Assembly: GCA_030264375.1 (NCBI GenBank)
Contig: JASCQW010000190.1
Location: forward strand, 61,227,369-61,291,368
Length of the DNA stretch: 64,000 nucleotides
Direction: 5' to 3'
Source of the DNA: Carcharhinus longimanus
Lineage: Eukaryota
The notes below the pieces were generated by a model. The model made no database searches. It had not been told where the DNA came from and was given only the letters and a program-made list of their open reading frames with translations. Position 1 is the stretch's first letter; every line of letters starts with the position of its first letter. Below, in pieces: positions 1 through 63,523 of the stretch. The translations under genes were made by a program, and so were the position numbers.

Positions 1-230
1 CCAGACGGAGCGGAGGAGGAGCCGGGGCGGCAGTGCAGAGGGAGCGGGGCGGAATGCAGTTCGGGTCGGTGCTGGTGACCGGCTCCAGCCGGGGTCTGGG
101 TCTGGAGCTGCTCCGCCAGCTGGCGCAGGCTGAGCCGCCGCCTCGGTACCTGTTCGCCGGCTCCAGGGACCCCGAGAGCCCGCGGGCCCAGGTGAGTGGC
201 TTCAGGCCCAGTGTGAAGACCAAGGGAATA
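1..230. promoter_or_regulatory. GC/CpG-rich island covering the 5' end and first exon of the SDR gene
   Basis: High GC with many CpG dinucleotides and GGGGCGG boxes, dropping abruptly to AT-rich sequence after about 230. Confidence 0.6.
54..191 (+). CDS. First coding exon of a C-factor/CsgA-like short-chain dehydrogenase/reductase
   Basis: ATG at 54 encodes MQFGSVLVTGSSRGLGLELLRQLAQAEPPPRYLFAGSRDPESPRAQ, containing the Rossmann TGxxxGxG motif. It ends at a strong phase-0 donor, CAG|GTGAGT (191/192). No downstream SDR exons were recognised. Confidence 0.85.
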
Positions 231-18670: not shown

Positions 18671-18991
18671 CTGGCATTCGCGCTAATTTCCAAGTCTCTC
18701 AAGCTCCTGAAAACACGAACGCTGTCTTGGGCACAAACGTCACCCTCTATTGCACGTTCCCTATTTTTCAAAATGTATTAAATGTGGAAGTTTACTGGTG
18801 GAAACTGGGTGAAATCGGATTTCTGCACAGAAGTCCAGATAACAGGAAGATATTTCTCCGCTTTAAGCAAGGGGGTGCTTCATTTCAGCTCCTGAATATC
18901 AGTGTCCGCGATGCTGGTGTGTATTACTGCGGTGTCAAAACCGTGGAAAACAGGACTGCAAATGGAACCGGCTCAACGATCAAAGTATCTG
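18671..18991 (+). CDS. Gene A coding exon 2: VJ-type Ig V-set domain
   Basis: ataatag|CT to TCTG|GTAGGT, 321 nt, phase 1-1. FQVSQAP...VTLYC...VYWWK...DAGVYYC...NGTGSTIKVS has the canonical B-strand Cys, C-strand Trp, DxGxYxC and a G-strand GxG. Confidence 0.93.
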
Positions 18992-20067
18992 GTAGGTGAC
19001 ATTCTGGCACGAGAAAAAGGAAAGCTCATAGATAATGTGGTGTTGCCAAAATTTCTTAAATTCAAATTGTTTATATATTGGAACAGACATATCCATATCT
19101 ATGTATTGTTTGTTTTCAGGCAGCAGTAACGTGGTTCAGTTAATCGAACGTCGTCGTACCAAGATATATACAGTCGTTGTTCTATGTGTACAGTAGAAAA
19201 TTGCCATACCTATTTAACATGATTTATTGGTTCTTACATCAGCACACCTAGATTTCATTTAAAGTGCCTCGGAAACTGATCGAACAATGCCCCTACTTTG
19301 GGGTTAACATGAATGAGCTGCACTATCCGGATAAAAGCCATATCACGATTTCTTATAAATGCATTGTTCCCTCAATAAATATTTGAACCGTCTAACAAAG
19401 GTGTGAACCAAACGCGAGCCAAACATTTGGTAATGAGCTTGTAAGATTAATCGCTACTGAGAAGTCTGCACAAAATTATTTTTTACAACTCTATGGAAAT
19501 CTTTAAGTTAGGAATGCTTAGAGTGGATTTTCACAGTCCTTCTATGTTATGAAATAATACCTTGCCTAAACTCAATTATGCAAGGAACTCAATTAACTAT
19601 AACCAATATGTGACGAGAGCCTAAATTCATTCAACTATAGCCTATGGCCCGGGATAGATATTGTTTACACTATAGTTATGTTCCCATAGTACTATATATT
19701 ATGAATCAACAATCTTTGATCATTGCCTATTTCAATTTGCTCAACAAGACCCTTTTTGAAAAGTCTTACCGAAAAAGAGAGAAACATGCAACAGACAATG
19801 GAGACATTGGATCAATTATGTTTGCACAGCTTCTTTGTAAAGTGCAATTATTAGTCCTAATTCCCAATGCAGTTTCCCAATAACCCTCGAATCTATGTTC
19901 AAACACTAACAAATATGTTGTTAACTGATTTCCATGCAAGGAATACAAATTTGTTGCAGTTACTTAACGCTCATGGAGATCACATTGGATAAAGAAAATG
20001 TAAGTTATGCAATCAAGAGAAAACTAACCCACATTATTATTCTTTGTTTTGTTTCTACTCTTTGCAG

Positions 20068-20376
20068 TTCCACCAACCCCGTTGAAGATTTTTCCCAAAG
20101 TACGTGAAGTAGACTCTTCTTTCCTTGATCTTCTATGCAAAACCAGTGAGTTTTACCCAAATGTGCTCAATCTCAGTTGGTACGAAGATGGAATTGAGAT
20201 CAGGAACAGCACAGTGACAACGAAGTCATTGAACATAAATGGACTTTATGAAGTTTCAAGTACATTAAAGAGGACGCAACCTGTCAGAAGCACAACTGTT
20301 TACACCTGTCAGGTTTCTCACGTCACACTCCCTGTCCCAGCTAAAGTGGAATTTACTCTTCTGAATCCCAGGCAAG
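20068..20376 (+). CDS. Gene A coding exon 3: Ig C1-set domain
   Basis: tttgcag|TT to CAAG|GTAAGG, 309 nt. LLCKTSEFYPNVLNLSWYEDG...NGLYEVSSTL...YTCQVSHVTL carries the C1 signatures C-x4-FYP, W, NGxY and YxCxVxH. Confidence 0.93.
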
Positions 20377-22649
20377 GTAAGGACCGGCATCCTTAACAAC
20401 TCACTGAACTGGAGATACACTACTGTGCATTCACATTGTAACTTAAGATTGGTGGGGCACACACTAGCTTAAAATACGTTTCAAACATATAGCGTAGATT
20501 TGGAATCATGTAATAACTCCAACGTAAGTGAATGCAAATTCCCCCAATTCGGCAACGTTTTATTGTTACTGGTTGATTCGCCAAGGAGCTTAAATACATT
20601 ACTCTAAACACGTTTATAAAATTATTCTTTATAATTGAGTGTTTCAGAAATTGCAGCTGCAGTCTCAAGACAGAAATTGTACGCAACTTAATAAAATAGG
20701 TGTTTCCAAAAAAAAAGAGGATCTGGTGAATTATCTGGGATTCTCAATCGTTTAATGGCAAAAATGCGAAACCGAAGTGATCATTACAGTTGGATGATGT
20801 TACCTCCTTAGTTTCTTATGTAGTGTGTTTTGTTTGTATTTTATACCATTTTACTTTCGAATTAATCGGAGTTATCTGCAAACAACTCCATTATCTTGAA
20901 GATTTGCTCACATCAACTAACCGGAGGCCTCTGTTACTATTGCAACTATCGTATTTTTCTTTGGACCTTTCTCTAAAATCAAATTGAAGCGTCAAAACTT
21001 GAGTGAATTATCAGCTGTGGACAATATTTTATAATGTATGATCCCCAAAACATGGAAAATTAAGAAATTTGAATAGCCATGGGTATAACGGTCCATTAAT
21101 TAATAAAATGGTAATGGACTCACTCTACTAATTTCAGTTCCGAACTTTATAATCACTTCTTCACTGCGTTCCCTCGAATGCAATCGACATATAATTAAGT
21201 AACAAACCCAAACATACTTCAGACTTTTCAATATTAAGACTTCCATGGATGCATAAAATAATCATGTGGCCGTCAAAATAAAAGCATCAGTTTCCTTCCT
21301 AGTTCTTTCTTGCAAATGGACACAAATTAGTTTGATTGTCAACATTTACTAGCGTGGATTTTTCTTTTGTTGCTTCTCCATCATTTTGAGCAATGTCATG
21401 GTTAAACATGTTCCCATATTATGGTCCACCTGCCCACTTTAGTACCCAGACATTAAATTGATTGATTCCATAGCGACTAATCTGCAACTACTTCCCCGAC
21501 CCCCCACCCCCGCTCCCCCACCATCAAAAAAAACCAAAAATCCGCCTGGTGCTAAAAAAGCTTGAAAACTTACACTTGCTCACTGAATATAAGCTATTGA
21601 TTTATTTTATGAACAACACAGGCGTACAAATCGACATCTGTGGCAACCTAAAGAGTAGAGCGGTCTTATTGAAATAGATTGTTTGCAAATGTATTAAAGC
21701 TACCACTTTCTCTGCGTTTTTCGACAACTCAATGAACTGGAGACACCTTAGGAAAACAATGCTCTAAGTCATTTGTTCCATGAGGCTTTCCCTGTGTAAC
21801 ACACTATTCAACCTCCGCAATCGAATTGTCAGGAACCCTTTCTTTCACTTTCATAACGATACTTCGTTACTGTGAAGCTAATTGAAAATTTGTTCCACAT
21901 TTTCATCATTCTTCCTTTATCGCAGAACACTGTTATGTTTGCCAATTTCCAATGCACGAGAGCCACTTCTCGAAGATAAATTTCCTTCAAATATAATGAT
22001 CTTCTTTTGAACGTATGCAGGCACAAGTATAACACAAAGCCACTTCTCGGAGTTAAATTTTCTTCAAGTGTAATGGTCTTGTTTTGAACATATCCACGCG
22101 CAAGTAAAACAACAAATCTTGTCATATGATCATCACTCTTCTCCATTAACTCACATAAATAAGGCTCTGACGTGAATTTAATTTATTACCCGATGAGCAA
22201 TCGAGCAAAGTCTGCTTCGAAAATCGCATCACAACATATTGTTCTGGAACTGTTTACTGAATGCATTTCATGAACTCGGTCTGAAATCTATATTTCCCGA
22301 TCAGGTTTTCTGAACTAATTCATAAATAAAAATCGCCCAAGAACATTATCCTTGTTATAACGGCTTTTAAATGTGCGTTATTTATCGCGCGAACCATTAC
22401 ATTTGAGGTGAGCCGGGTTTGAAAATACTTCTAACAGTGTGTTCTGACGCTTGTTTATCTCTCGAACTTGTAACCATTCATATCGCTATTATAAATAAAC
22501 TTTCATTGCCCGGAATAACGAACATTACTTCTTTAAAAACAAAATCTATTACAGAAATATTTAGTCTCCAAGTGTTCCGCTTTCAGTTAGCGCTGCTAGA
22601 TGAAACAATTATTCTTTTATTTTTAGTATCACTAGTCGGTTTACATTAA

Positions 22650-23330
22650 CACTGTAATGAAGTTACTGCGAAAATCCCCTAGTCATCACACTCCGGCTCC
22701 TGCTGGGGAACACTGAGGGAGAATTTAGCATGGCACTTAACAGACACGTCTTTCGGACTGTGGGAGGAAACTGGAGCACCCGAAATAAATCCGCACAGAC
22801 ACGGGGACAACATGCAATAACAGTTCAAAGTTGGGAATTAAACCCGGGTCCCAGGTGCTGTGAGGCAGCAGCCCTAACCACGATGCCACCGCACCACACC
22901 GAACTGGCCATTACGTTATCTATCACTTCGAAACATTTGCTGATTCATCGGCGTTTCCTGACATGGAAGCTGTCGCCATTAATTGAGCGACATTCAGAAT
23001 CCTCCAGAAACACTACAGTGCAAAAAGGCCATTCGGCCCACGCAGTCCACACCGGTGCTTTGACCAATTATCTCACCCAAGCTCTCATCACTGCACCATC
23101 CATGTAATCTTCACAGTTTTCTGGGGTAAGCTATCCAATACCTAAAAATTCATCTCACCTGCATACCTTCGGACTGTGGGAGGAAACAGCAGCAACCGAC
23201 GGAAACCCATGGAGATTTGCGGAGAATGTGTAAACGCCACACAGTCACCCAAGATCGAAATTGAACCCAGATCCCTCCAGCAGTTCGCAGCTGTGCTAAC
23301 GATTGTACCATTGTGCCACTGTGTCACACG
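22650..23330 (-). mobile_element. Two tRNA-derived SINE copies in a gene A intron
   Basis: Reverse-strand SINE hallmarks ggactgtgggaggaaac...gaacccgggtccc...gtgaggcagcag occur twice. Confidence 0.75.
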
Positions 23331-23421
23331 GCTTTATCTGTTCTACTTCAGTCATAATATAGATAGATAGAACATTACTTTCTTAATGTGATTTCTGTCA
23401 TTATTTTCCGTTGTCAATCAG

Positions 23422-23532
23422 GTGCTGCATTCCCGTTCAACAATCAAGTTATTTATATCGGTACTGCAGTTGCATTCGTATTTCTACTGATGGTCGCCAT
23501 CACCGGAAGCTACTGTCACCAAAATAAAAAAG
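23422..23532 (+). CDS. Gene A coding exon 4: transmembrane segment
   Basis: caatcag|GT to AAAG|GTAAAA, 111 nt. GAAFPFNNQVIYIGTAVAFVFLLMVAITGSYCHQNKK is hydrophobic, has no charged TM residue and ends in a basic stop-transfer. Confidence 0.85.
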
Positions 23533-23869
23533 GTAAAAGAGGTTTTTATTCCAAAGTAACCTCAAGATCGTCAAATGTATGAAATTGTATAATTTGAGTA
23601 AAAGCTAAAAATCCTATGACAGCCGATTTGTAAAATGCATTCACGTTCATTCGTTAAGTCTAGTGCCTCGGGGAATTCGTAAAGTATCCTCTATGTTTTG
23701 CTCAGTGGTAACTTAATTTAATTATATTTGCTTCACTTTGAGGAGCAGTTTAAACAAAATAGTTAACTGGAACAGTAGAATTCAGGCACTATGAGGCAGT
23801 TATTGTTCTTTTCGTCTGAGTCCTAAACTGCGTCTGCAGTTTTGATGCCATTATAGAAGCACCAAACGG

Positions 23870-24548
23870 GAGGTACGGTAGCACAGTGGTTAGCACCGCT
23901 GTTTCACAGCGCCAGGGACCTGGGTGCGATTCCTCGTTTCTGTCGCTATCTGTGTGAAGTTTGCGCGTACTCCTGGTGTCTGCATTGAGTTTTCACTAGG
24001 TGCTCTGGTTGCCTCCCATGCTCTGGAAGGTGAGTTGGTTAGGCGCATTGACCGAACAGGCGCCGGACTGTGATGACTAGGGGAATTTTGCAGTAACTTC
24101 ATTGCAGCGTTAATGTCAGCCTTACGTGTGACTAATGAACGTAGTTTACATTGTCATTTAAATAATATTTGACATATAATTGAAAAAAACGCCGCTGGTC
24201 CCACTGTTTTAGTTGTTTAAAATCATAGAATCCGACGGTGCTGAAAGAGGCCCTTCCACCCATCGAGTCTGCACCCAACACAATCCCACCCAGCCCCTAT
24301 CGCCATATCCCCACTAATCCATCCAACCTACACATCCCAGGACACGAAGGGACAATTTCTTAGCATGGCCAATCAACCTAACCCGCACATCTTTGGACTG
24401 CGGGAGGAAACCAGAGTGCCCAGAGGAAATCCACGCAGACATGAGGAGAATGTGCAAACTCCACACAGAGAGTGACCCGAGCCAGGAATTGAACTCAGGA
24501 CCCTGGAGTTGTGAAGCAGCGGTGCTAACAACTGTGCTACCGTGCCGC
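23870..24548. mobile_element. Two tRNA-derived SINEs in opposite orientation (23870-24150 +, 24225-24548 -)
   Basis: 5' ends ggtagcacagtggttagcac (tRNA A-box-like) and the reverse complement gtgctaacaactgtgctaccgtgccgc. Confidence 0.8.
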
Positions 24549-24702
24549 TCCGAATTGGAGTTTATTGGAGTAGGATTGCATTTCAAATAATATTTTGATA
24601 TAACTGCCCACGTTTTTATTGGAATCAACCAGATTGTCCTTCTGTAGAATTTTGTTGATCAATTGAAATTCATGGCGGAATAATAATTTAATTCATTATT
24701 AG

Positions 24703-24746
24703 GAGTGTGCCGATATGTGGATACTTCAGAACTTCGTGAACAGCAG
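24703..24746 (+). CDS. Gene A coding exon 5: 44-nt juxtamembrane cytoplasmic exon
   Basis: ttattag|GA to CAG|GTAATT encodes (G)VCRYVDTSELREQQ, phase 1 to 0. Same length, phase and GAGTG start as gene B exon 60754-60797. Confidence 0.8.
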
Positions 24747-24904
24747 GTAATTTCATATTATTGTTGCTCATGTATGTTAAATAAATTAAGAAATGATACG
24801 GCATTGAATCATTGCAATTAATCTCCACGTTGATCAACTGAATTTTACATTTCTTTTTCTACTCACAAACGTTCACAAATACATGTAATCCTTGTTGACA
24901 AAAA

Positions 24905-26700
24905 GTCTGCACAGTGGCACATTGGTTAGCTCTGCTGCTTCAGCGCCAAGGCCTCGGATTTCATTCTTGGTTTGTGTAACTCTGTGCGCAGAGTCTGCCA
25001 ATTCCCCTCGCGTCTGAGTGGGTTTCCTCCGGGTAGTCCAATTTCCTCCCGCAGTCCAAAGGACGTGCTGGTTCGGTGCATTGGCAATGCTAAATTCTCC
25101 TTCAGTATATCCGAACAGGCACCGTTCTTGTGGCAACTGGGGAAAATTCACAGTAACTTCATTGCAGTGTTAATGTAAGACNNNNNNNNNNNNNNNNNNN
25201 NNNNNNNNNNNNNNNNNNNNNNNNNNNNNNNNNNNNNNNNNNNNNNNNNNNNNNNNNNNNNNNNNNNNNNNNNNNNNNNNNGTTGTGAACTAACTAAAAT
25301 GAATAAACTGAGGAAACTGTAGTGTTCTGAAGAAATACATCTCTAGCTCCAACGATAATGTGTGTGCTGTATTTTTGTGAAGTGTATGCGTAGATTATTA
25401 ACATTCGAAAACAGTTATAGGCAGCTGTGCAGTTTGTTCTGTTGAAGATTTTGCGAATATCAATGCATGAATGGATGCTCGGAATGCTCCATATCAGATT
25501 GCAGGCCAGAAACTGCACTGCCCCAGCTCAATATAAAGAAAGTCTTCAGAAGTGATGGAAACCACAAGTCAGTCAGTTTCCTCAACAATGGAAGTGAGAT
25601 GTCCTGTAAATGAAACAGAATATATCAATATTCCGGTCCGTATGGTCACAAAATGTCAAAATTCTACATCAACGTTTCAGCTTTCCATCTAGTTTTCATA
25701 TAATTTGGAAACCAGTTTAAAAACGTATTTTATCAGCTCATCTGCTAATAGGCAGAACAGAGGATGAACTGATGTTTAAATTGCGTTGGGTTCGAAGAGC
25801 TCCGCTATTTTCGAATCAAATAATCCCTACAGTGTAGAAAGAGGTCATTTTTCTAATCAAGCCTCGTACGACCATAATCCCACCCAGACGTTGTCCCTCT
25901 AATCTCACATAATTATCCCCCTAATCTCCCTAATACTGAGGGACAACTTACCATGGCCAATCCAGATAAGCTGCGCATCTCGGAATGTGCAAGGAAACCG
26001 GAACAATCGGAAGAAACTGACATAGACAACGGAAAAACGTGGAAACTCCACATAGGCAGTCACACGCGTCTAGTTATAAACAGGAGAGTTAAACCGCTAG
26101 AGGAATGGACAGCGTTTGCCAAAGCACGATGATAAAAATAGCATGAACGTGCGTCAAAAGTCTATTCTTTACGCTGTTCCATTCAGTGCGGTGCTTCTAC
26201 CAAATTTTATATCAGCTATCTTATTCTTTCCTTTCGGAAAATTATTCAATTGTATAATTATGCATAAAGTGAACCACAAATTCGAAAATGTTCAAATTAA
26301 CAGGATCAAACTTCTGGATTATGGCAGATAATAGCTGACCAAAGTAATTGATACTTTTCCAGAAATTGTCGAATGAGTAGAAAGAGGAATGCGGTGGCTG
26401 GAAATTATATGGATTATCAAAACGCTTCTGATGCAAAAGGCATTAGCGCCAATTGAATTAAAGTTACATTTAATTACATAATTCCTACAGTGTAGAAGGA
26501 GGCATTCCGCCCATCAGGTCTACACGAAAATCCGAACAGAAGGCATTGTACAGCCGTTCTCATTTACTACGACTAAACCATCGAACCTACACATCTTGAG
26601 ACACTCAGGGACAATTTCACATGACCAATCTACATAACACACATGATAGAACCGTTAGCAGGAAACTGTAACACCTATGGAAACTCATACAGACATGGGG
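24905..26700. mobile_element. Cluster of partial tRNA-derived SINEs (about 24905-25180 +, 25820-26065 -, 26480-26700 -)
   Basis: Repeated matches to the SINE body and tail seen in the better-preserved copies. Confidence 0.65.
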
Positions 26701-26704
26701 ACAA

Positions 26705-28562
26705 TGTATTTGATTTGATTTCATTTGTTATTGTCATATGTATAAGTAGTGAAAAATATTATTCCTCGCGCACTAAGCAGACAGAGCATAGCATTCATAG
26801 AGAAGAAAACGAGAAAGTGCAGAATGCAGAGTTACAGTCATTGTTAGGGTGTAAAGAAAGATCAATTTAATGCAAGGGAGGACAATTTAAAATTTTGATG
26901 GCAGCAAGGAAGAAGCTGTTCTTGAGTCGGTTAGTGCGTGACCTCAGGCTTTTGTATCTTTTCCCGATGGAAGGAGGAAGAGAGGAAGTCCGGGGTGCAT
27001 GGTGCTCTTTATTATACTGGCTGCTTTGCCAAGCCGGCAGAACGTGTAGACAGAGTCAATGGATGGGAGGCAGGTGTGCTTGTTGGATTGGATTACATTC
27101 ACAACGTTTTGTATTTTCTTGTGGCCTTGGGCAGAGCAGGAGCGAGAACAAGCTGTGGAAGTTGGTGACAGCTGTAGCTGACATGCCAAGTTTGCTTAGT
27201 CTTCCTTAGCCTTCTGAGAAAATAAAGGCGTTGCTGGGATTTTTTCACTTTTGCGTCGGGACGGGAAGAACAGGACAGGTTGTTATTGATGTGGACACCT
27301 GAAAATTTGAAGCTGCTGGCCCTTTCTACTTCGTCCACATTGATGTGGACAGCGACGTATTCTCCTCTACGCTTTCTGAAGTTGATGACGATCTGTTTTG
27401 TTCTGTTGACATTGAGGGAAAGATTATTGTCGTGGCACCAGTTCACCAGATTCTCCATCTCATTCCTGTACTCTGTCTTGTCATTGTTTGAGATCTGAGC
27501 CACACTGGTGGTGTCGTCAGCAACTTCAAATTGAGTTGGAGGGGAATTTGGCTACACCGTCATAGGTAAACAAGGGGCATACTAGGGGGCTGAGGACACA
27601 ACCTTGTGGGGGAGGGGGAGGGCACTGGTGTTGAGGGTGATCGTGGAGGAGGTGTTGTTGCCTACCCTTAATGATTGTGGCCGTTCCCCTTCCTTTTGGG
27701 GAGCTGTCAGGATCCTTGTCCAGGACCCAACCACAGAGAGAAGAGCGGAGACCCAGACCACGGAGTTTGAAGATGAGTTTCATAGGAATAATGGTGTTGA
27801 CAGCTGAGCTGTCGTCAAGAAATAGGAGCCTAACATAGGTCTTTGCTGTCTAGGCATTGCAGTTTTGAGTGAAGTGCCGGGGGATAGCGTCTGCTATGGA
27901 CCTGTTGTAGCAGTAGGCAAACTGTAGTGGATCCAGGCATCCAGGAAGCTGGAATTGATTCGTGCTAAGACTAGGGTTTGAAACACTTCATAATGATGGA
28001 TGCCAGAATCATTGGATGATTGTCATTAAGGAACACTGCTTGGCTTTTCATTAGTTTCAGGATGATGGTCGTTTTCGTGAAGCAGATAGGGACCTAAGAT
28101 CATTGAAAAGAGAGTTTGAACATGTCTGCGTATATCCCTGCCAGCTGATCACGCAGAATATAAGTGCTCGTCAGGGTACCCCATCGGACCAGTTGCTTTC
28201 TGTGAGTTGACCTTCGAGAAAGCTGATCTGACAGCGGCAATGGTGACAGCTTCATCCAAGCATTCAAGGGTGGAGGGCACGGTCTCACTGATGTCTTGCT
28301 CAAGCCGGGCATAGAATGCATTGAGCTCCTCGGAGGTGGAGGTGGCGTTGGTGGTGCGTTCGAGCCCATGATTTTACATGCCTTCATCATATAGCCTGTT
28401 ATGTCTTGCAGACCTTGCCATAGTCGGAGGAGGCCTGTGTGGCTGGCCTGGGACTCTAGCTTGGTCTGGTACTGTCTTTTGGCATCATTGATGGATCTCC
28501 TTTGATCGTTTCTGGCTTTCTTGTATAGATCAGAGTTGCCTGACTTGAATGCATCAGACCTA
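26705..28562 (-). mobile_element. Rex1/Babar-type LINE, about 1.9 kb, frameshifted
   Basis: Minus-strand AFKSGNSDLYKKAR...RLWQGLQDITGY, PQGCVLSPL, ISNNDKTEYRNEMENLVNWCHDNNLSLNV and QQRLYFLRRLRK; tail tttgatttgattt. Confidence 0.85.
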
Positions 28563-28834
28563 AAGTAAGCAGCCACACAAATGATCTGCCGAGGCTGGAA
28601 TCGAGCACGTCTCCCAGGCACTGTGAGGCAGCATTAAATCAAATTATTTACATGACATGCATATTTGAACAATGGTAGTCGACAGATATTAACAATAATA
28701 GGCAAACACTCCGATTACCAGGATATAACTGGTTTGTTCTCATAGAGCTACGTTGGGACTTTGAAGATTCAAAGGATTTATTCAGGACTTCATGGAATAA
28801 AACACCACACATTGAAATTTCTTGATGACACAAA

Positions 28835-29790
28835 TATAGGACAGTACAAAGTCTCACAACATCAGGTTAAAGTCCAGCATGTTTATGTGGTATCACAAAC
28901 TTTTGGAATGCTGTTCTCTTTCACCAGTGGGGAGGAGTGTTCATAAAGACGGCATATATAGACAGTGTCTCGATTGCAAGATATTGATTGGAATGCAAGT
29001 CTTTACAGGTATAGAAAATGGAAATAGGGAGAGTAATAATTACAGGTAGGCGAGGTGTGAATTGTCTGAAGCCAGGGCAGTTAGTAGGATTTTGCAAGCT
29101 CAGGCCAAATGGTGGGGGTTACATGAAGTGTGACACGAATGCAAGATCCATGCTGAGGATCTTCTCCTCACGTGTGTGGAACTTGGCTATCAGTTTCTGG
29201 CTTGGGGGGTTATGCATTGTCGTGTGCCTCGAGTGTCACAGGGATGAACGGACACCATGCGACAATCACCAGACAGGAATGCTCCCTTCCTGTCGGAGAA
29301 CACTTCAGCAGCCAAAGACATTCAGTTTTCATCTTCAGTTAAACGTTCTCCAAGGCAGACTTCAAGACACATGATAAAGCAGAATCGCCGAACAGAAACT
29401 GATACCCAAGTTCATACGCATGAGGTCGGCTTCAACCATGCTCTTGGGGAGATGTCACACTCCCTGTCACCCCACCATTTGGCCTGGGCGTGCATAATCT
29501 TACTAACTGGCCTGTCTTGAGACAATTCACATCTCTTTAACCTGTTATTAGTCCTCTCTCCACTCGCATTGTTTCTTCCTGCAAAGAATTGATTGCCTGC
29601 AAAGACTTGTATTCCAACCATTCTCTTACAATTGAGTCTCTGTCTATATATGCCGTCTTTGTTAACCCACCTCTGTCACACACCTGATGAAGTAGAAGTG
29701 TTCCGAAAGCCCGTAATGCCAAATAAACCTGTGTTGTGAGACTTCTTACTGTATCCAGCTTAGTCCAAAGCCAGCATCTCCACTTCGAAA
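28835..29790. mobile_element. Penelope-like element remnant with inverted terminal segments
   Basis: EHFSSQRH...EQKLIPKFIR resembles a GIY-YIG C-terminus. 28840-29200 is a diverged reverse complement of about 29390-29790. Confidence 0.65.
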
Positions 29791-30204
29791 ACATAAAAGT
29801 TATTGTAAATCTGTTAAAGGAAAGAAGGGATGTGCTATTTCATCCGTTTGGAGAGATATTCTGGGGACACGGCGACATTTTCTGAAAAACATAGAACTAC
29901 AAATTTCAAGAGTGTAATTAGGAATAAATTCTAGAGGGAGGGAAAAATTCTAACCTTTGTGGGATTGCTTACAAGCATGCTAATTAGTTTTGTTTGAATT
30001 GTTCCCCGAAATAATGTATTAATAGAAACGTGCCACGTGTGTAAATTCAAGGTCGACAGATTCGTGAGGCACTAAATGATTCGCCCCTTTCCTAATGGTC
30101 CCATGTATATTATTTTCACTCTTATTGAACGAACATTGATGCAGTTTTGCTGGTAGATAAATAAAACAATGGGCGAACAACATTCTCCATCGTTGACTTC
30201 ACAG

Positions 30205-30378
30205 ATGGAACAAGTCACCACTGATAACAAGCTCACCTATGCTTCTCTTGATCTGATTGGCTTCGAGAAAACCCGGAAATCGAAATATTATGCGGCAAGT
30301 ACAGAGAATGCTCAGCTTAGTGCCACGATGCCAAGCAGAGCAACAGAGGTTATCTACACCGAAACCAGAGTCTCATAA
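30205..30378 (+). CDS. Gene A terminal exon: ITIM-bearing cytoplasmic tail
   Basis: cttcacag|ATG, phase 0, encodes MEQVTTDNKLTYASLDLIGFEKTRKSKYYAASTENAQLSATMPSRATEVIYTETRVS*. LTYASL fits the ITIM consensus, and the exon aligns with the gene B terminal exon. Confidence 0.85.
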   Translation: MEQVTTDNKLTYASLDLIGFEKTRKSKYYAASTENAQLSATMPSRATEVIYTETRVS

Positions 30379-52704: not shown

Positions 52705-52753
52705 ATGTTGTCAAGTGGGATGTGCTTCTCTGTCCTGGCGCTCGTTTTCACAG
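52705..52753 (+). CDS. Gene B coding exon 1: signal peptide
   Basis: MLSSGMCFSVLALVFT plus a phase-1 donor ACAG|GTT (weak), then a 166-nt intron to the V exon. Confidence 0.72.
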
Positions 52754-52919
52754 GTTCCAGTTCATTTTCTATGCGGTTTGCTTATTAAATCGCACAATTT
52801 CCAAGCTGCATGTTAATTCATAATGTTTCCTTGTACTTGAGACAAATTAAGTAACTCATCAAACGCGCGCTTTTTATCGTACTATTGCTCCGGATTAATT
52901 CGGCTTTGATTCTCATTAG

Positions 52920-53240
52920 GCTCTGGTCAATCGGTGGTGAAAGTAACTCAGCTACCTGCGAGCGTGAGCAAAAACAAGGATACAAATGTGTCCTTCCATT
53001 GCTCGCTTCCTTTCTTTCAAAACGTTCCGGCTGTGAATATACAATGGTGGAAACACGGTGACAACCAATATATACGTACAGAAGAAAATGGCCGAAAAGT
53101 AACTGGATTAAAGACAATATTCAGCGGTTTCCTTCAGATCAAGAATGTGACCTTGCAAGACGCAGGGGTATACTATTGCACTGTCACTCATCGGGGCAGT
53201 ATTGCTGGTAATGGGACGGGCTCCAAATTATCTGTCCGAG
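52920..53240 (+). CDS. Gene B coding exon 2: VJ-type Ig V-set domain
   Basis: ctcattag|GC to CGAG|GTAGGT, 321 nt as in gene A. VKVTQLP...VSFHC...IQWWK...DAGVYYCTV...GNGTGSKLSVR. Confidence 0.93.
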
Positions 53241-53895: not shown

Positions 53896-54207
53896 TTCCA
53901 CCAACTCCGCTGAAAATTAATTCTCAGTATCCTGAAAATGACGCATCCGCGCTTCCTGCTGTTCTATGCTCACCGTCTCCATTTTACCCGAAGAATATCA
54001 ATTTCACTTGGTACAAGGATGGCATCAAAGCTACAGGAATGATAAAGACAATAATTGAATCCAAGACTGATGGACTATATGAAGCTTCTAGCCGTTTGCA
54101 AGAGACGCAGTCTATCCAGTTAGGAACTATGTACACCTGTCTGGTGACTCACAGCACTCTTCACGTTTCAGCGTCCGTCAGTCACATTATCACCAATCGC
54201 AATACAG
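53896..54207 (+). CDS. Gene B coding exon 3: Ig C1-set domain (donor site mutated; the frame reads on to TAA at 54231-54233)
   Basis: ttcatag|TT opens VPPTPLKI...VLCSPSPFYPKNINFTWYKDG...DGLYEASSRL...YTCLVTHSTL with no internal stop. The expected phase-1 donor reads ACAG|TTAAG. Confidence 0.88.
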
Positions 54208-55380
54208 TTAAGCAGTCTGATAGAGGAATATAACTTCAGAGAACGTGCAATCTCGCATATCCGTGTAGATTCTTTGGAGAAAAAATGTTTCATTTGGTCC
54301 CACGTCACGGATTTGCTTTAAATTAGTTTGCTTCAAACGTATCTTCAAATGCCTTTTTTGAAAAATTATAAGTTCATTGTTCCTAAAACTTCCTGCATCT
54401 TCCTAGCAATCCGTGGGAAAGCGTTCTTCTCAAATTCCATTTATTTTAGACAAACGAAAATCAACTTGACTGCGGCTTATCTATGCAATTGAAAAAGTAT
54501 ACGTGCATTTGTTCTCCTTCGAAATCAGGTGTAGCACGATTCATTCTTTCAAATTGCATTTACGCTCCCCTGCTGTAATGGTAAAAATCATAGTGTCTCA
54601 TATCTCTCAAAGTAACTAAAGCGGTTCAGCCCTTCCAACGTCCTGGGCATTTTTCTCCTATACTTCCTGAGGTGAACTGGCGATTATTGTGTTTAGTTGT
54701 TCAGCAAAGAATTGAGTAATCTCTTAAGTTTGGCATCATATTTTACGTTTTCTGATTCAATAAAGCCACTATTCTTAAAATTCAATTAATTCCAGAATCA
54801 TCCCTAAGAAACTTACGGTTTTGTCCTGCCACGCCCAAAGACGTTTGCATGTGCAGCTTTGCATTTTATTGCTTTTGGCTGAAAATAATACCTTTTTGGC
54901 GATTGGTGCACTCCATCACTTTCACCCCAAAAATCTCATTGTCATTATTATTCGTATTACATTGTACTTATATTTCGTCTGCTCATGTTGGCAATCTTGT
55001 TGTACTATTGCCAAGTTTCCTACTGCTGTGCACGCTACATGCCACCATTAATACAATTTTTATGACCCACTAACTTCGAAATTGCACTCGATATTTCCTA
55101 GTCCGTGTCATTGAGTCTTTCATATCCAGCACTGGGTCTCACAGTTATGGCGGCTGAAGACTGGGGTCTTGACATAAAGATGGCCTTTATAAGTGGTTGC
55201 TCAGTTTGCAGTTACCAATAGCCCACACACAAAAAAAATCTCACACACGCACCCTCTCCCCCTCCTTACCCCCACACCACCCAGAGAAAACATTAAATCT
55301 GGTCTTGATGTAGATAAATTGCAATGTAAATTTGCCAACAATATCTCCCCTCCAAGCACCGTTTTCCTGTAGTGTCATGC

Positions 55381-55735
55381 TTCCTCCATCACCACTGAAA
55401 ATTAGCTCTCTGCAAACTGTCAATGATTCATATCTCTATATTGCTATTATTTTCGAGGAACCTTCCTGCCCCCCACCCACCACATGCCACTCGCCACCCC
55501 AACTCTGCCCACTCCACAGCCCCGCCAATCATCGAAGAATGCCAGGTACCATTTGAATAAGAATGTCTCCAAAATTACAATAGATACAAATAACATTGCT
55601 CAACTAATAACCAATGGGTCATAAGGAACTTGGCTTTGCAAAGTTCCCTGCCTATCAATTTTGTACTTGTTTATGGCTATCTGCAAACTTATATGATTCT
55701 CCATATTTCAGCCACGGTCCTCACATTGTCGCGTC
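55381..55735 (+). pseudogene. Decayed second C1 exon of gene B
   Basis: Three colinear blocks match the functional C1: LPPSPLKISS, LNKNVSKITIDTNNIAQLITNGS* and LQSSLPINFVLVYGYLQTYMILHISATV. The acceptor AG, both Cys and the Trp are lost, and a C-rich insert lies at about 55460-55545. Confidence 0.7.
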
Positions 55736-58840: not shown

Positions 58841-59858
58841 CCTGGTGCTATCGCTGAACTGTTGTTCAGATTTTCTGTGACAGAATCATGCAATTTCGAT
58901 ATAGGGATTAGGTATCAGAGTGTGATCAGTTGCGTTTGCAATTAAGTCGGAAATAAGAGTTTCAACATTAATCACTTTGCGCGCATGAAATATGTTCCGG
59001 TATGTGCCTGCGTGTTTATGTGTGTGAATCGGTGGTGAGAGCACCGTATTTAATACAGGTGCGCGTTTGTTTCCGTCCTCTGCCGATGGGCTTCAGTCCT
59101 CTGCCAATGGGCTTTGTTACTTGACCATGATTTGTGTTCCGGCGCGTTGTCACAAACGTGTTGCAACAGACTGATTCCAGGCTATTTTCTCTCAATATTC
59201 CGGAAATAATCCTCATGACTTCCGTTAATATTATATTTACGACGTTTGAAATCTCCTGAGTCTGGTTGCGTAGCAGTGCGCACTGTCAGGTGGAATAGGA
59301 TGTGCGAAGTCGTGTAATCTTCGCACCACAGAGCACCCAGCAGACTTGATTTTGAGATTCGCATTCGCCTTAATATTTCCATTAGGTTTCCGAGGTGCTG
59401 CCAGTAGTTCAAGAATCATACAAAGGCATCTTGATCGCGCAGACATGACAAGCTGCAGCATCCCCGAAATGATTAATCCACACACTGTCTTTCTTCATAA
59501 TATTTATGGGTGGCCCTTCGCCCTCAAAGTCGTGGTCATTTGGACATACCGACGATTGGATACTGGTTTTCCAGCCTAGACTACCCTAGATTATCCAAAA
59601 AATACCCAGCAGGGATGTATTTCCTCTGAAAGCTTATTTCAGATAAAATGAACTTCAGCCAAAGGGGTGCCTATACTATCGCTTCAGCATGTAATCTGAG
59701 CAACTCGATAGCCAAGGGAAGATCATCATGCCGTGTTTTTTAGCTGATCTTCACCAAACACGAAGTGAGCGAAATGCACGGTCATTTATGGCATATCTTC
59801 GCTGTTAAACTGGACAGAGGAGTGCCTCAGGTTTATATGTTTGATTTGAACTCTGCAG

Positions 59859-59969
59859 GTGGTACCATCACCCATTACTTGCTAATCTCTGCAGCTTCTT
59901 GTGGCGGATTTGTTTCATTGGTGCTGTGCATTATAACTCTGAAGCGGCGTCTGTCAAAGAAAAATAACG
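59859..59969 (+). CDS. Gene B transmembrane exon
   Basis: ctctgcag|GT to AACG|GTAAGA, 111 nt as in gene A. GGTITHYLLISAASCGGFVSLVLCIITLKRRLSKKNN has no charged TM residue. Confidence 0.85.
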
Positions 59970-60753: not shown

Positions 60754-60797
60754 GAGTGCAAAAGAATGACAAAGGACTCAAATATCCTGATCAGGAG
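60754..60797 (+). CDS. Gene B 44-nt juxtamembrane exon
   Basis: tttccag|GA to GAG|GTACGT encodes (G)VQKNDKGLKYPDQE, phase 1 to 0. Confidence 0.82.
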
Positions 60798-62334: not shown

Positions 62335-62433
62335 GAAGCAACAGATGTGATGACGCCTTATGCTGCGCTAGATATGAATAATTTCCGGACGGCACCAAGA
62401 CTAAAGCAACAAGAAAGGACAGTTTATGCCCAG
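62335..62433 (+). CDS. Gene B extra cytoplasmic exon with a tyrosine-motif pair (can read through to a stop at 62530-62532)
   Basis: catgcag|GAA to CAG|GTAGAT, 99 nt, phase 0-0, encodes EATDVMTPYAALDMNNFRTAPRLKQQERTVYAQ. Confidence 0.78.
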
Positions 62434-63355: not shown

Positions 63356-63523
63356 ACTAAAACAATTCCACGGGAAAGTAAGGTGACCTACGCTGCTCTA
63401 GCGATGGCAGCTCCAAAGAAAGCAGATAAGGCTAATTATAAAGAGAAGAGTACAGTTTACGGTCAGATTCGCATGGAAAAGCAGAGAGCAGACGCTGGTT
63501 ACACGCAAGGAAAGGACGAGTAA
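63356..63523 (+). CDS. Gene B terminal exon: ITIM plus ITSM (absent from the supplied ORF track)
   Basis: ttatacag|ACT, phase 0, encodes TKTIPRESKVTYAALAMAAPKKADKANYKEKSTVYGQIRMEKQRADAGYTQGKDE*. VTYAAL is an ITIM and TVYGQI an ITSM. Confidence 0.85.
   Translation, partial: TKTIPRESKVTYAALAMAAPKKADKANYKEKSTVYGQIRMEKQRADAGYTQGKDE

Follow-up and report, generated by a model that had tools for sequence, protein, structure and literature searches.

Does a single base at the end of one exon turn a shark receptor gene into a source of decoys, silence it, or leave it almost unchanged? The question is raised by gene B, which lies with a comparison gene, gene A, in a stretch of 64,000 nucleotides of Carcharhinus longimanus DNA (the window, to which positions refer unless a contig is named). 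The C1-set exon of gene B (53896-54207, forward strand) is followed by TTAAGCAG, and base 54208 is T, giving the junction ACAG/TTAAGC (a slash marks the exon end). In gene A, the corresponding exon (20068-20376, forward strand) is followed by GTAAGG and the donor, CAAG/GTAAGG, is intact. The reading that we favor, with reasonable confidence, is that T at 54208 is a derived, apparently polymorphic splice-donor allele in a gene with intact reading frames, and that it is likely a hypomorph or null for the full-length receptor on the haplotypes that carry it.

In its normal register (junction 54207>59859), the gene B model encodes 367 amino acids in the order leader, VJ, C1, transmembrane (TM) segment and ITIM/ITSM tail (Table 1). 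The J-like end, GNGTGS, lies in the same exon as the V-set domain, the C1-set exon comes next, and the TM core, LLISAASCGGFVSLVLCII, is uncharged. We take the tail motifs VTYAAL and TVYGQI to be an ITIM and an ITSM, respectively. The ITSM consensus is TxYxxV/I. The TM and tail exons are intact, as the preliminary description had claimed: the TM exon and the three tail exons are open and have GT/AG ends. Because the remaining exons and splice sites are intact, the gene has no additional sign of decay, which weighs against the reading above. The leader donor (52751-52761, CAG/GTTCCAGT) is weak, with 6 of 11 U1 matches, and is unchanged in relatives among the differences listed. No annotated protein of gene B itself was found, the best match being at 70%. 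At the other end of the window, positions 51-194 (forward strand) encode a VLVTGSSRGLG motif; a Pfam scan of these 48 amino acids gave no match, and this is presumably the first exon of a probable short-chain dehydrogenase.

Table 1. Features of genes A and B and of the altered donor, in window coordinates
Feature	Position	Strand	Remarks
Gene A	18671-30369	+	V 18671-18991; C1 20068-20376; TM candidate 23422 or 23449 to 23532; last exon about 30208-30369, LTYASL
Gene B leader exon, coding part	52705-52753	+	phase-1 donor ACAG/GTTCCA, weak; aligns with homologue leaders
V exon, non-rearranging VJ-type V-set, YYC...GNGTGSKLSV	52920-53240	+	Pfam V-set E 2.7e-9; donor GAG/GTAGGT intact
C1-set exon, 312 nt, phase 1/1	53896-54207	+	Pfam C1-set E 1.1e-11; both cysteines and tryptophan present
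New GT one base upstream, ACA/GTTAAG, phase 0	54207-54208	+	frameshift with 59859 acceptor; predicted NMD target
Donor +1 position	54208	+	T in assembly and run X1; G in X11, X2, X5, X6, X7, X8
Read-through tail (V)KQSDRGI, then stop	54208-54233	+	TAA 54231-54233
First intronic AATAAA, 552 nt past donor, putative poly(A) signal	54759-54764	+	frequency at chance level
Decayed second C1 copy in C1-TM intron	55373-55731	+	tblastn; frameshifted, with stops and without matching splice sites
TM exon, phase 1/1, uncharged TM	59859-59969	+	in-frame upstream phase-0 AGs before 59744, 59831
Cytoplasmic exon 1	60754-60797	+	
Cytoplasmic exon 2 with TPYAAL, TVYAQ	62335-62433	+	
Last coding exon, ITIM-type VTYAAL and ITSM-type TVYGQI	63356-63523	+	fit to ITIM/ITSM consensus

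An intact second C1 domain or an alternative exon in the intron was also sought, and only the decayed C1 copy was found, which meets a stop or frameshift from any incoming phase. Its local alignment score is 71, compared with a maximum of 45 among 100 shuffles. Judging from this remnant, gene B may once have been V-C1-C1, which is the SIRP-like layout.

The donor is exceptional within its own C1 family. Loci were obtained for 30 of the 33 C1 matches in the genome (gene B and 29 others), and all 29 others have a phase-1 G/GT at the end of the C1 exon, which leaves gene B as the sole exception. In the closest paralogue, L002, the site reads ACAG/GTAAGA. The change from GT to TT that had been proposed by comparison with gene A is confirmed from the window.

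We compared base 54208 across contigs from 7 of 20 public sequencing runs; none of the 20 is recorded as RNA, a fact without bearing on expression. In the best-covering run of the same species, X1, a read-derived contig spanning 53984-54860 has T at this position at a depth of 11.7. An error of assembly or base calling might have been suspected in a fragmented assembly (68,774 contigs) with 8 gaps in the window. However, the X1 contig rules out the assembly error that the preliminary description had left as an option, and the nearest gap is more than 9 kb away; we consider an error of either kind extremely improbable.

X1 is the only run with T. The other six have G at their full depth, and therewith the phase-1 GT donor after C1 that is found in all 29 paralogues and lost in the assembly allele. 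One of the six is X11, a second sample with the same species label (depth 3); the others are runs of relatives (depths: X2, 15.4; X6, 2; X5, 117.6 in 6 contigs; X7, 8.6; X8, 20.3). As judged against the relatives that cover the sites, X11 shares derived letters with the assembly at 54181, 54241 and 54286 but is ancestral at 54149 and 54208, and so resembles an allele from the same lineage. It is unlikely that sequencing error recreated two ancestral letters. Because G occurs in five runs of relatives and in another sample with the species label of X1, we conclude that G is ancestral and T derived, and that T is apparently a polymorphic allele within the species rather than fixed. The examination of reads and other individuals that the preliminary description had recommended therefore upholds T in X1 and speaks against T as a fixed feature. 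Its option of a recent null allele gains support from the same six runs, while a switch that is fixed species-wide or shared across species is unsupported.

It is important to consider how the G in X11 is to be read, given that it comes from one 213-bp contig of depth 3, flagged as possibly erroneous, in a sample whose species label is coded. It could instead represent a very close copy that is missing from the assembly. These points bear on an explanation in which T is fixed, the whole species carries gene B as a young pseudogene or truncated gene, and X11 owes its G to a mislabelled relative or an unassembled, nearly identical paralogue. In X1, the reads at 52761-52942, the boundary of intron 1 and the V exon, follow two paths separated by 10 differences in 182 sites. 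The deeper path (depth 9) matches the assembly exactly; the second (depth 3.8) and the multiple X5 contigs could be extra copies. However, the three derived letters that X11 has in common with the assembly are absent in the relatives covering them, the depths of the two X1 paths add up to about the single-path depth of 11.7, as would be the case for two alleles, and a DNA search for a second copy of 54100-54330 found none in the species' own genome assembly. We therefore consider fixation very unlikely.

The locus itself is highly polymorphic. The minor X1 path is an allele of deep divergence or else a close copy missing from the assembly, and 6 listed of its 10 differences are common to X5. 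Relative to the assembly, the 877-bp X1 contig around the donor has 7 site differences and a 9-bp in-frame deletion, yet keeps the T. This hints that the T allele is perhaps not very recent, or the contig may be a mosaic of two haplotypes. Because contigs can be mosaics, haplotypes across the locus cannot be phased, and because contigs drop alleles, X1 may be T/T or G/T. X1 is possibly the source sample of the assembly, so T may rest on one individual. Two side observations concern the C1 domain. The 9-bp deletion, at 54108-54116, removes three C1 codons on the contig with the T donor. At 53973, two residues past the first C1 cysteine, the assembly and X1 have proline (CCG) and X2, X5, X6, X7 and X8 have threonine (ACG); the proline is lineage-specific and could affect folding.

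With T at the +1 position, the predicted duplex of the donor with U1 weakens from -11.0 kcal/mol to -4.3 or -4.8 kcal/mol. In the normal register U1 still matches CAG/TTAAGCAG at 8 of 11 positions, and the U1 5' end is canonical, without a compensating variant, in the 3 motif-readable copies among 12 examined (of 42 genomic copies). According to PMC6280755, most human GT-to-TT mutations disrupt splicing, and among non-canonical donors TT is the most used after GC. At the level of pattern, the gene B site fits '..G TTAAG.Ag', which has G at -1 and a strong U1 match. It resembles TT donors of the FANCC c.165+1G>T type (Erkelenz 2018, PMC6280755), in which a G at -1 is followed by TTAAG and a GT register at -1 competes with the TT register at +1. 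In the human reporters described in PMC6280755, donors of this pattern without a GT at +5/+6 were cleaved at -1 as well as at +1, or cryptic sites took over, and accurate use of +1 needed a second GT at +5/+6 together with splicing enhancers. Gene B differs from these donors in lacking that GT, with GC at +5/+6, and in its shark context. Shifted U1 registers have also been described (PMC9311317, PMC4856993).

These data make it conceivable that the allele is nearly silent, either through cleavage at TT or through joining of the GT at -1 to a different acceptor, so that a useful membrane receptor is kept in frame. Given the leak at TT in human reporters (PMC6280755), some full-length receptor could return. 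Moreover, the phase-0 acceptors before 59831 and 59744 both have open frames into the TM exon and could rescue the -1 donor in frame. However, the acceptor at 59831 has only 5 pyrimidines in 15 positions, the one at 59744 is 115 nt upstream of the normal acceptor, and in the reporters variants without the +5/+6 GT were spliced inaccurately or wholly at cryptic sites. A nearly silent allele is accordingly unlikely, in our estimation.

Under the reading that we favor, the substitution would lower U1 pairing from about -11 to about -4 or -5 kcal/mol and leave the C1 exon poorly defined, so that T haplotypes would probably lose most of their full-length inhibitory receptor. Loss of a donor usually results in exon skipping or intronic polyadenylation, in keeping with exon definition and with the protection from premature polyadenylation that U1 provides. 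Skipping of C1 (junction 53240>59859) stays in frame and would yield a V-TM-ITIM protein of 263 amino acids. Read-through from the ATG at 52705, combined with intronic polyadenylation, would yield a soluble leader-V-C1 protein of 235 amino acids that ends in NRNTVKQSDRGI before the stop. Use of the -1 GT, or of cryptic donors farther downstream, would lead to premature stops and decay, and a small leak at TT would restore some normal receptor. The skipped and read-through forms would be the main surviving mRNAs, since skipping and intronic polyadenylation escape decay. We extrapolated this mix of products from human splicing; a +1 G-to-T change can plausibly lead to skipping or read-through.

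As reading frames, the roughly 235-residue read-through product without a TM segment and the in-frame skip between two phase-1 exons, V and TM, are as the preliminary description had them. It had also proposed a second soluble protein from the -1 GT. Here the frame holds: in the model derived from the window, junction 54206>59859 gives 235 amino acids ending in VVPSPITC and a stop. However, this stop lies 227 nt upstream of the last junction, and under the 50-55-nt rule for nonsense-mediated decay (NMD) the product is predicted to be an NMD target and not secreted. An in-frame cryptic donor before the read-through stop was considered as well. The best candidates, 54144 (phase 0) and 54119 (phase 2), are out of frame; no phase-1 GT is found among the 22 best-scored sites, and the only phase-1 site is a weak TCA/GTCACA.

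The intronic AATAAA lies where it had been reported, but it loses its value as a cue for a decoy. From hexamer frequencies in the window, the probability of at least one AATAAA in 531 nt is about 0.33. Among paralogues, the hexamer occurs within 600 nt of the donor in 11 of 25 gap-free flanks (12 of 26 with gene B; four loci were left out because of gaps or a short flank). Likewise, in the 27 other C1 loci with a readable flank, read-through would reach a stop after 3-45 codons. Because both features are common across paralogues, they are not specific to a decoy.

An alternative that gives the T allele a function is that it is an old variant under balancing selection, a one-base switch on divergent haplotypes that turns a membrane V-C1-ITIM receptor into a secreted V-C1 decoy, a V-only inhibitory membrane receptor, or both. 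The skipped and read-through products keep the frame and should evade NMD, T is found on two sequences about 1% apart (the assembly and the X1 contig), and the minor X1 path at the intron-1/V boundary has letters common to other species. Soluble forms may also be normal biology in the family, given that 9 of 59 homologous models lack a TM segment (7 after removal of one borderline and one partial model). However, T is absent from all five runs of relatives and thus not trans-species, and neither the poly(A) signal nor the early stop is particular to gene B. Tails that look like read-through at the C1 donor occur in two automatic models without a TM segment, one from catshark (XP_038663088.1) and one from a chimaera (P0040), which suggests that soluble forms probably do not depend on T. 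We regard a balanced switch as quite unlikely, and it applies at most to T-carrying haplotypes. We read the T allele not as a selected switch but as a hypomorph or null that a redundant birth-and-death family tolerates.

The family is large. In the species' own genome (2.68 Gb) we found at least 33 C1 and at least 27 V matches, mostly in two clusters of non-rearranging VJ-C1 receptors on contig C190, at about 53.9-54.2 Mb and 61.1-61.6 Mb. Homologues occur in sharks, rays and one chimaera, and all the named ones are from cartilaginous fish, with automatic names. Over 363 amino acids, the 367-residue gene B model shares 60% identity with Heterodontus francisci XP_067906080.1, which has the same domain order, and its C1 domain falls in a tree clade (support 96/93) with RefSeq models of cartilaginous fish. 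In its V-C1-TM-ITIM order, gene B resembles RefSeq models named 'tyrosine-protein phosphatase non-receptor type substrate 1-like' (SIRPA-like), namely XP_067906080.1 and XP_067905932.1 (both H. francisci) and XP_038663088.1 (Scyliorhinus canicula); these are predicted, automatically named proteins and do not represent a studied family.

Several members are broken. In paralogue L003, a TAG interrupts C1 and 30 kb contain no V match, L039 has a frameshifted V in a 20-kb stretch of which half is a gap, and L060 has a V domain with a damaged F strand. From these and from the decayed C1 copy in gene B, we infer a birth-and-death multigene family. At L044/L045 (contig C190:54138029-54139271), two V exons with identical translations lie 940 bp apart before one C1 exon, which reflects either a recent tandem duplication or a duplication in the assembly.

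Judging by its sequence features, the family may act like SIRP or PRARP-type inhibitory receptors. Gene B has the V-set domain with a J-like GxG motif (GNGTGS) and the cytoplasmic ITIM (VTYAAL) of SIRP proteins. SIRP proteins have two C1-set domains, however, and gene B has one intact C1 with the second decayed. In a ranking of Atlas features, SIRP-like clusters came first (0.96-0.97), which is a lead only. Against the PDB, the horn-shark homologue best matches UrIg2 (E 2e-20), followed by SIRP-alpha (E 3e-14). With SIRP-alpha and UrIg/UrIg2, gene B has in common a VJ-type V domain and a C1-set domain. Unlike UrIg/UrIg2, which according to PMC12227049 have three to nine and more C1 domains, it has one; and while UrIg is only secreted, gene B encodes a TM segment.

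A further comparison, at the level of architecture, is with PRARP (Fu et al. 2019). These are reportedly VJ genes that do not rearrange and that encode ITIM/ITSM tails; most vertebrates are said to have a V-C1 form, and birds a degenerate C1. By this definition, gene B is similar in its single-exon VJ, C1, TM segment and ITIM/ITSM tail; the shark family differs in its size of about 30 members. Because the avian C1 is said to be degenerate, the predicted C1-skipped product of gene B would resemble the avian form. NCR3/NKp30 combines one V domain with a charged residue in its TM segment, whereas gene B has a C1 exon and its TM core is uncharged.

Soluble, null or skipped alleles are familiar from other receptors: the 22-bp deletion of KIR2DS4, the 9A allele of KIR2DL4, LILRA3 and exon-2 skipping in CD33. 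As in these, the variant lies in one member of a redundant immunoglobulin-superfamily cluster, with predicted loss of the membrane form or a soluble or shortened product. However, the families are unrelated, and those alleles are known from population and transcript data. A literature search for precedents of KIR-type alleles found none. For the cluster itself, the search of openly available literature gave papers on UrIg, MHC and CD28 and no description, PMC10751288 and PMC11599192 included; Ohta 2019 and Fu 2019, which are behind subscription, may cover it.

On its own, the T allele matters little, as donor null or hypomorphic alleles are to be expected in redundant, fast-evolving clusters of immune receptors. 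It does provide a natural G/TTAAG donor in a non-mammal, in which in vivo measurement of the choice between the -1 and +1 registers would be possible. The allele further draws attention to one polymorphic locus of a large shark VJ-C1-ITIM family, which seems to be known chiefly from automatic annotation and is relevant to the origin of antigen-receptor-like genes; the family may outrank the allele in interest. If the balanced switch were true, it would amount to KIR/LILR-like functional polymorphism in a chondrichthyan family of roughly 30 genes, and if the decoy or V-only form were abundant and the allele balanced, this would be the first such functional receptor polymorphism in cartilaginous fish.
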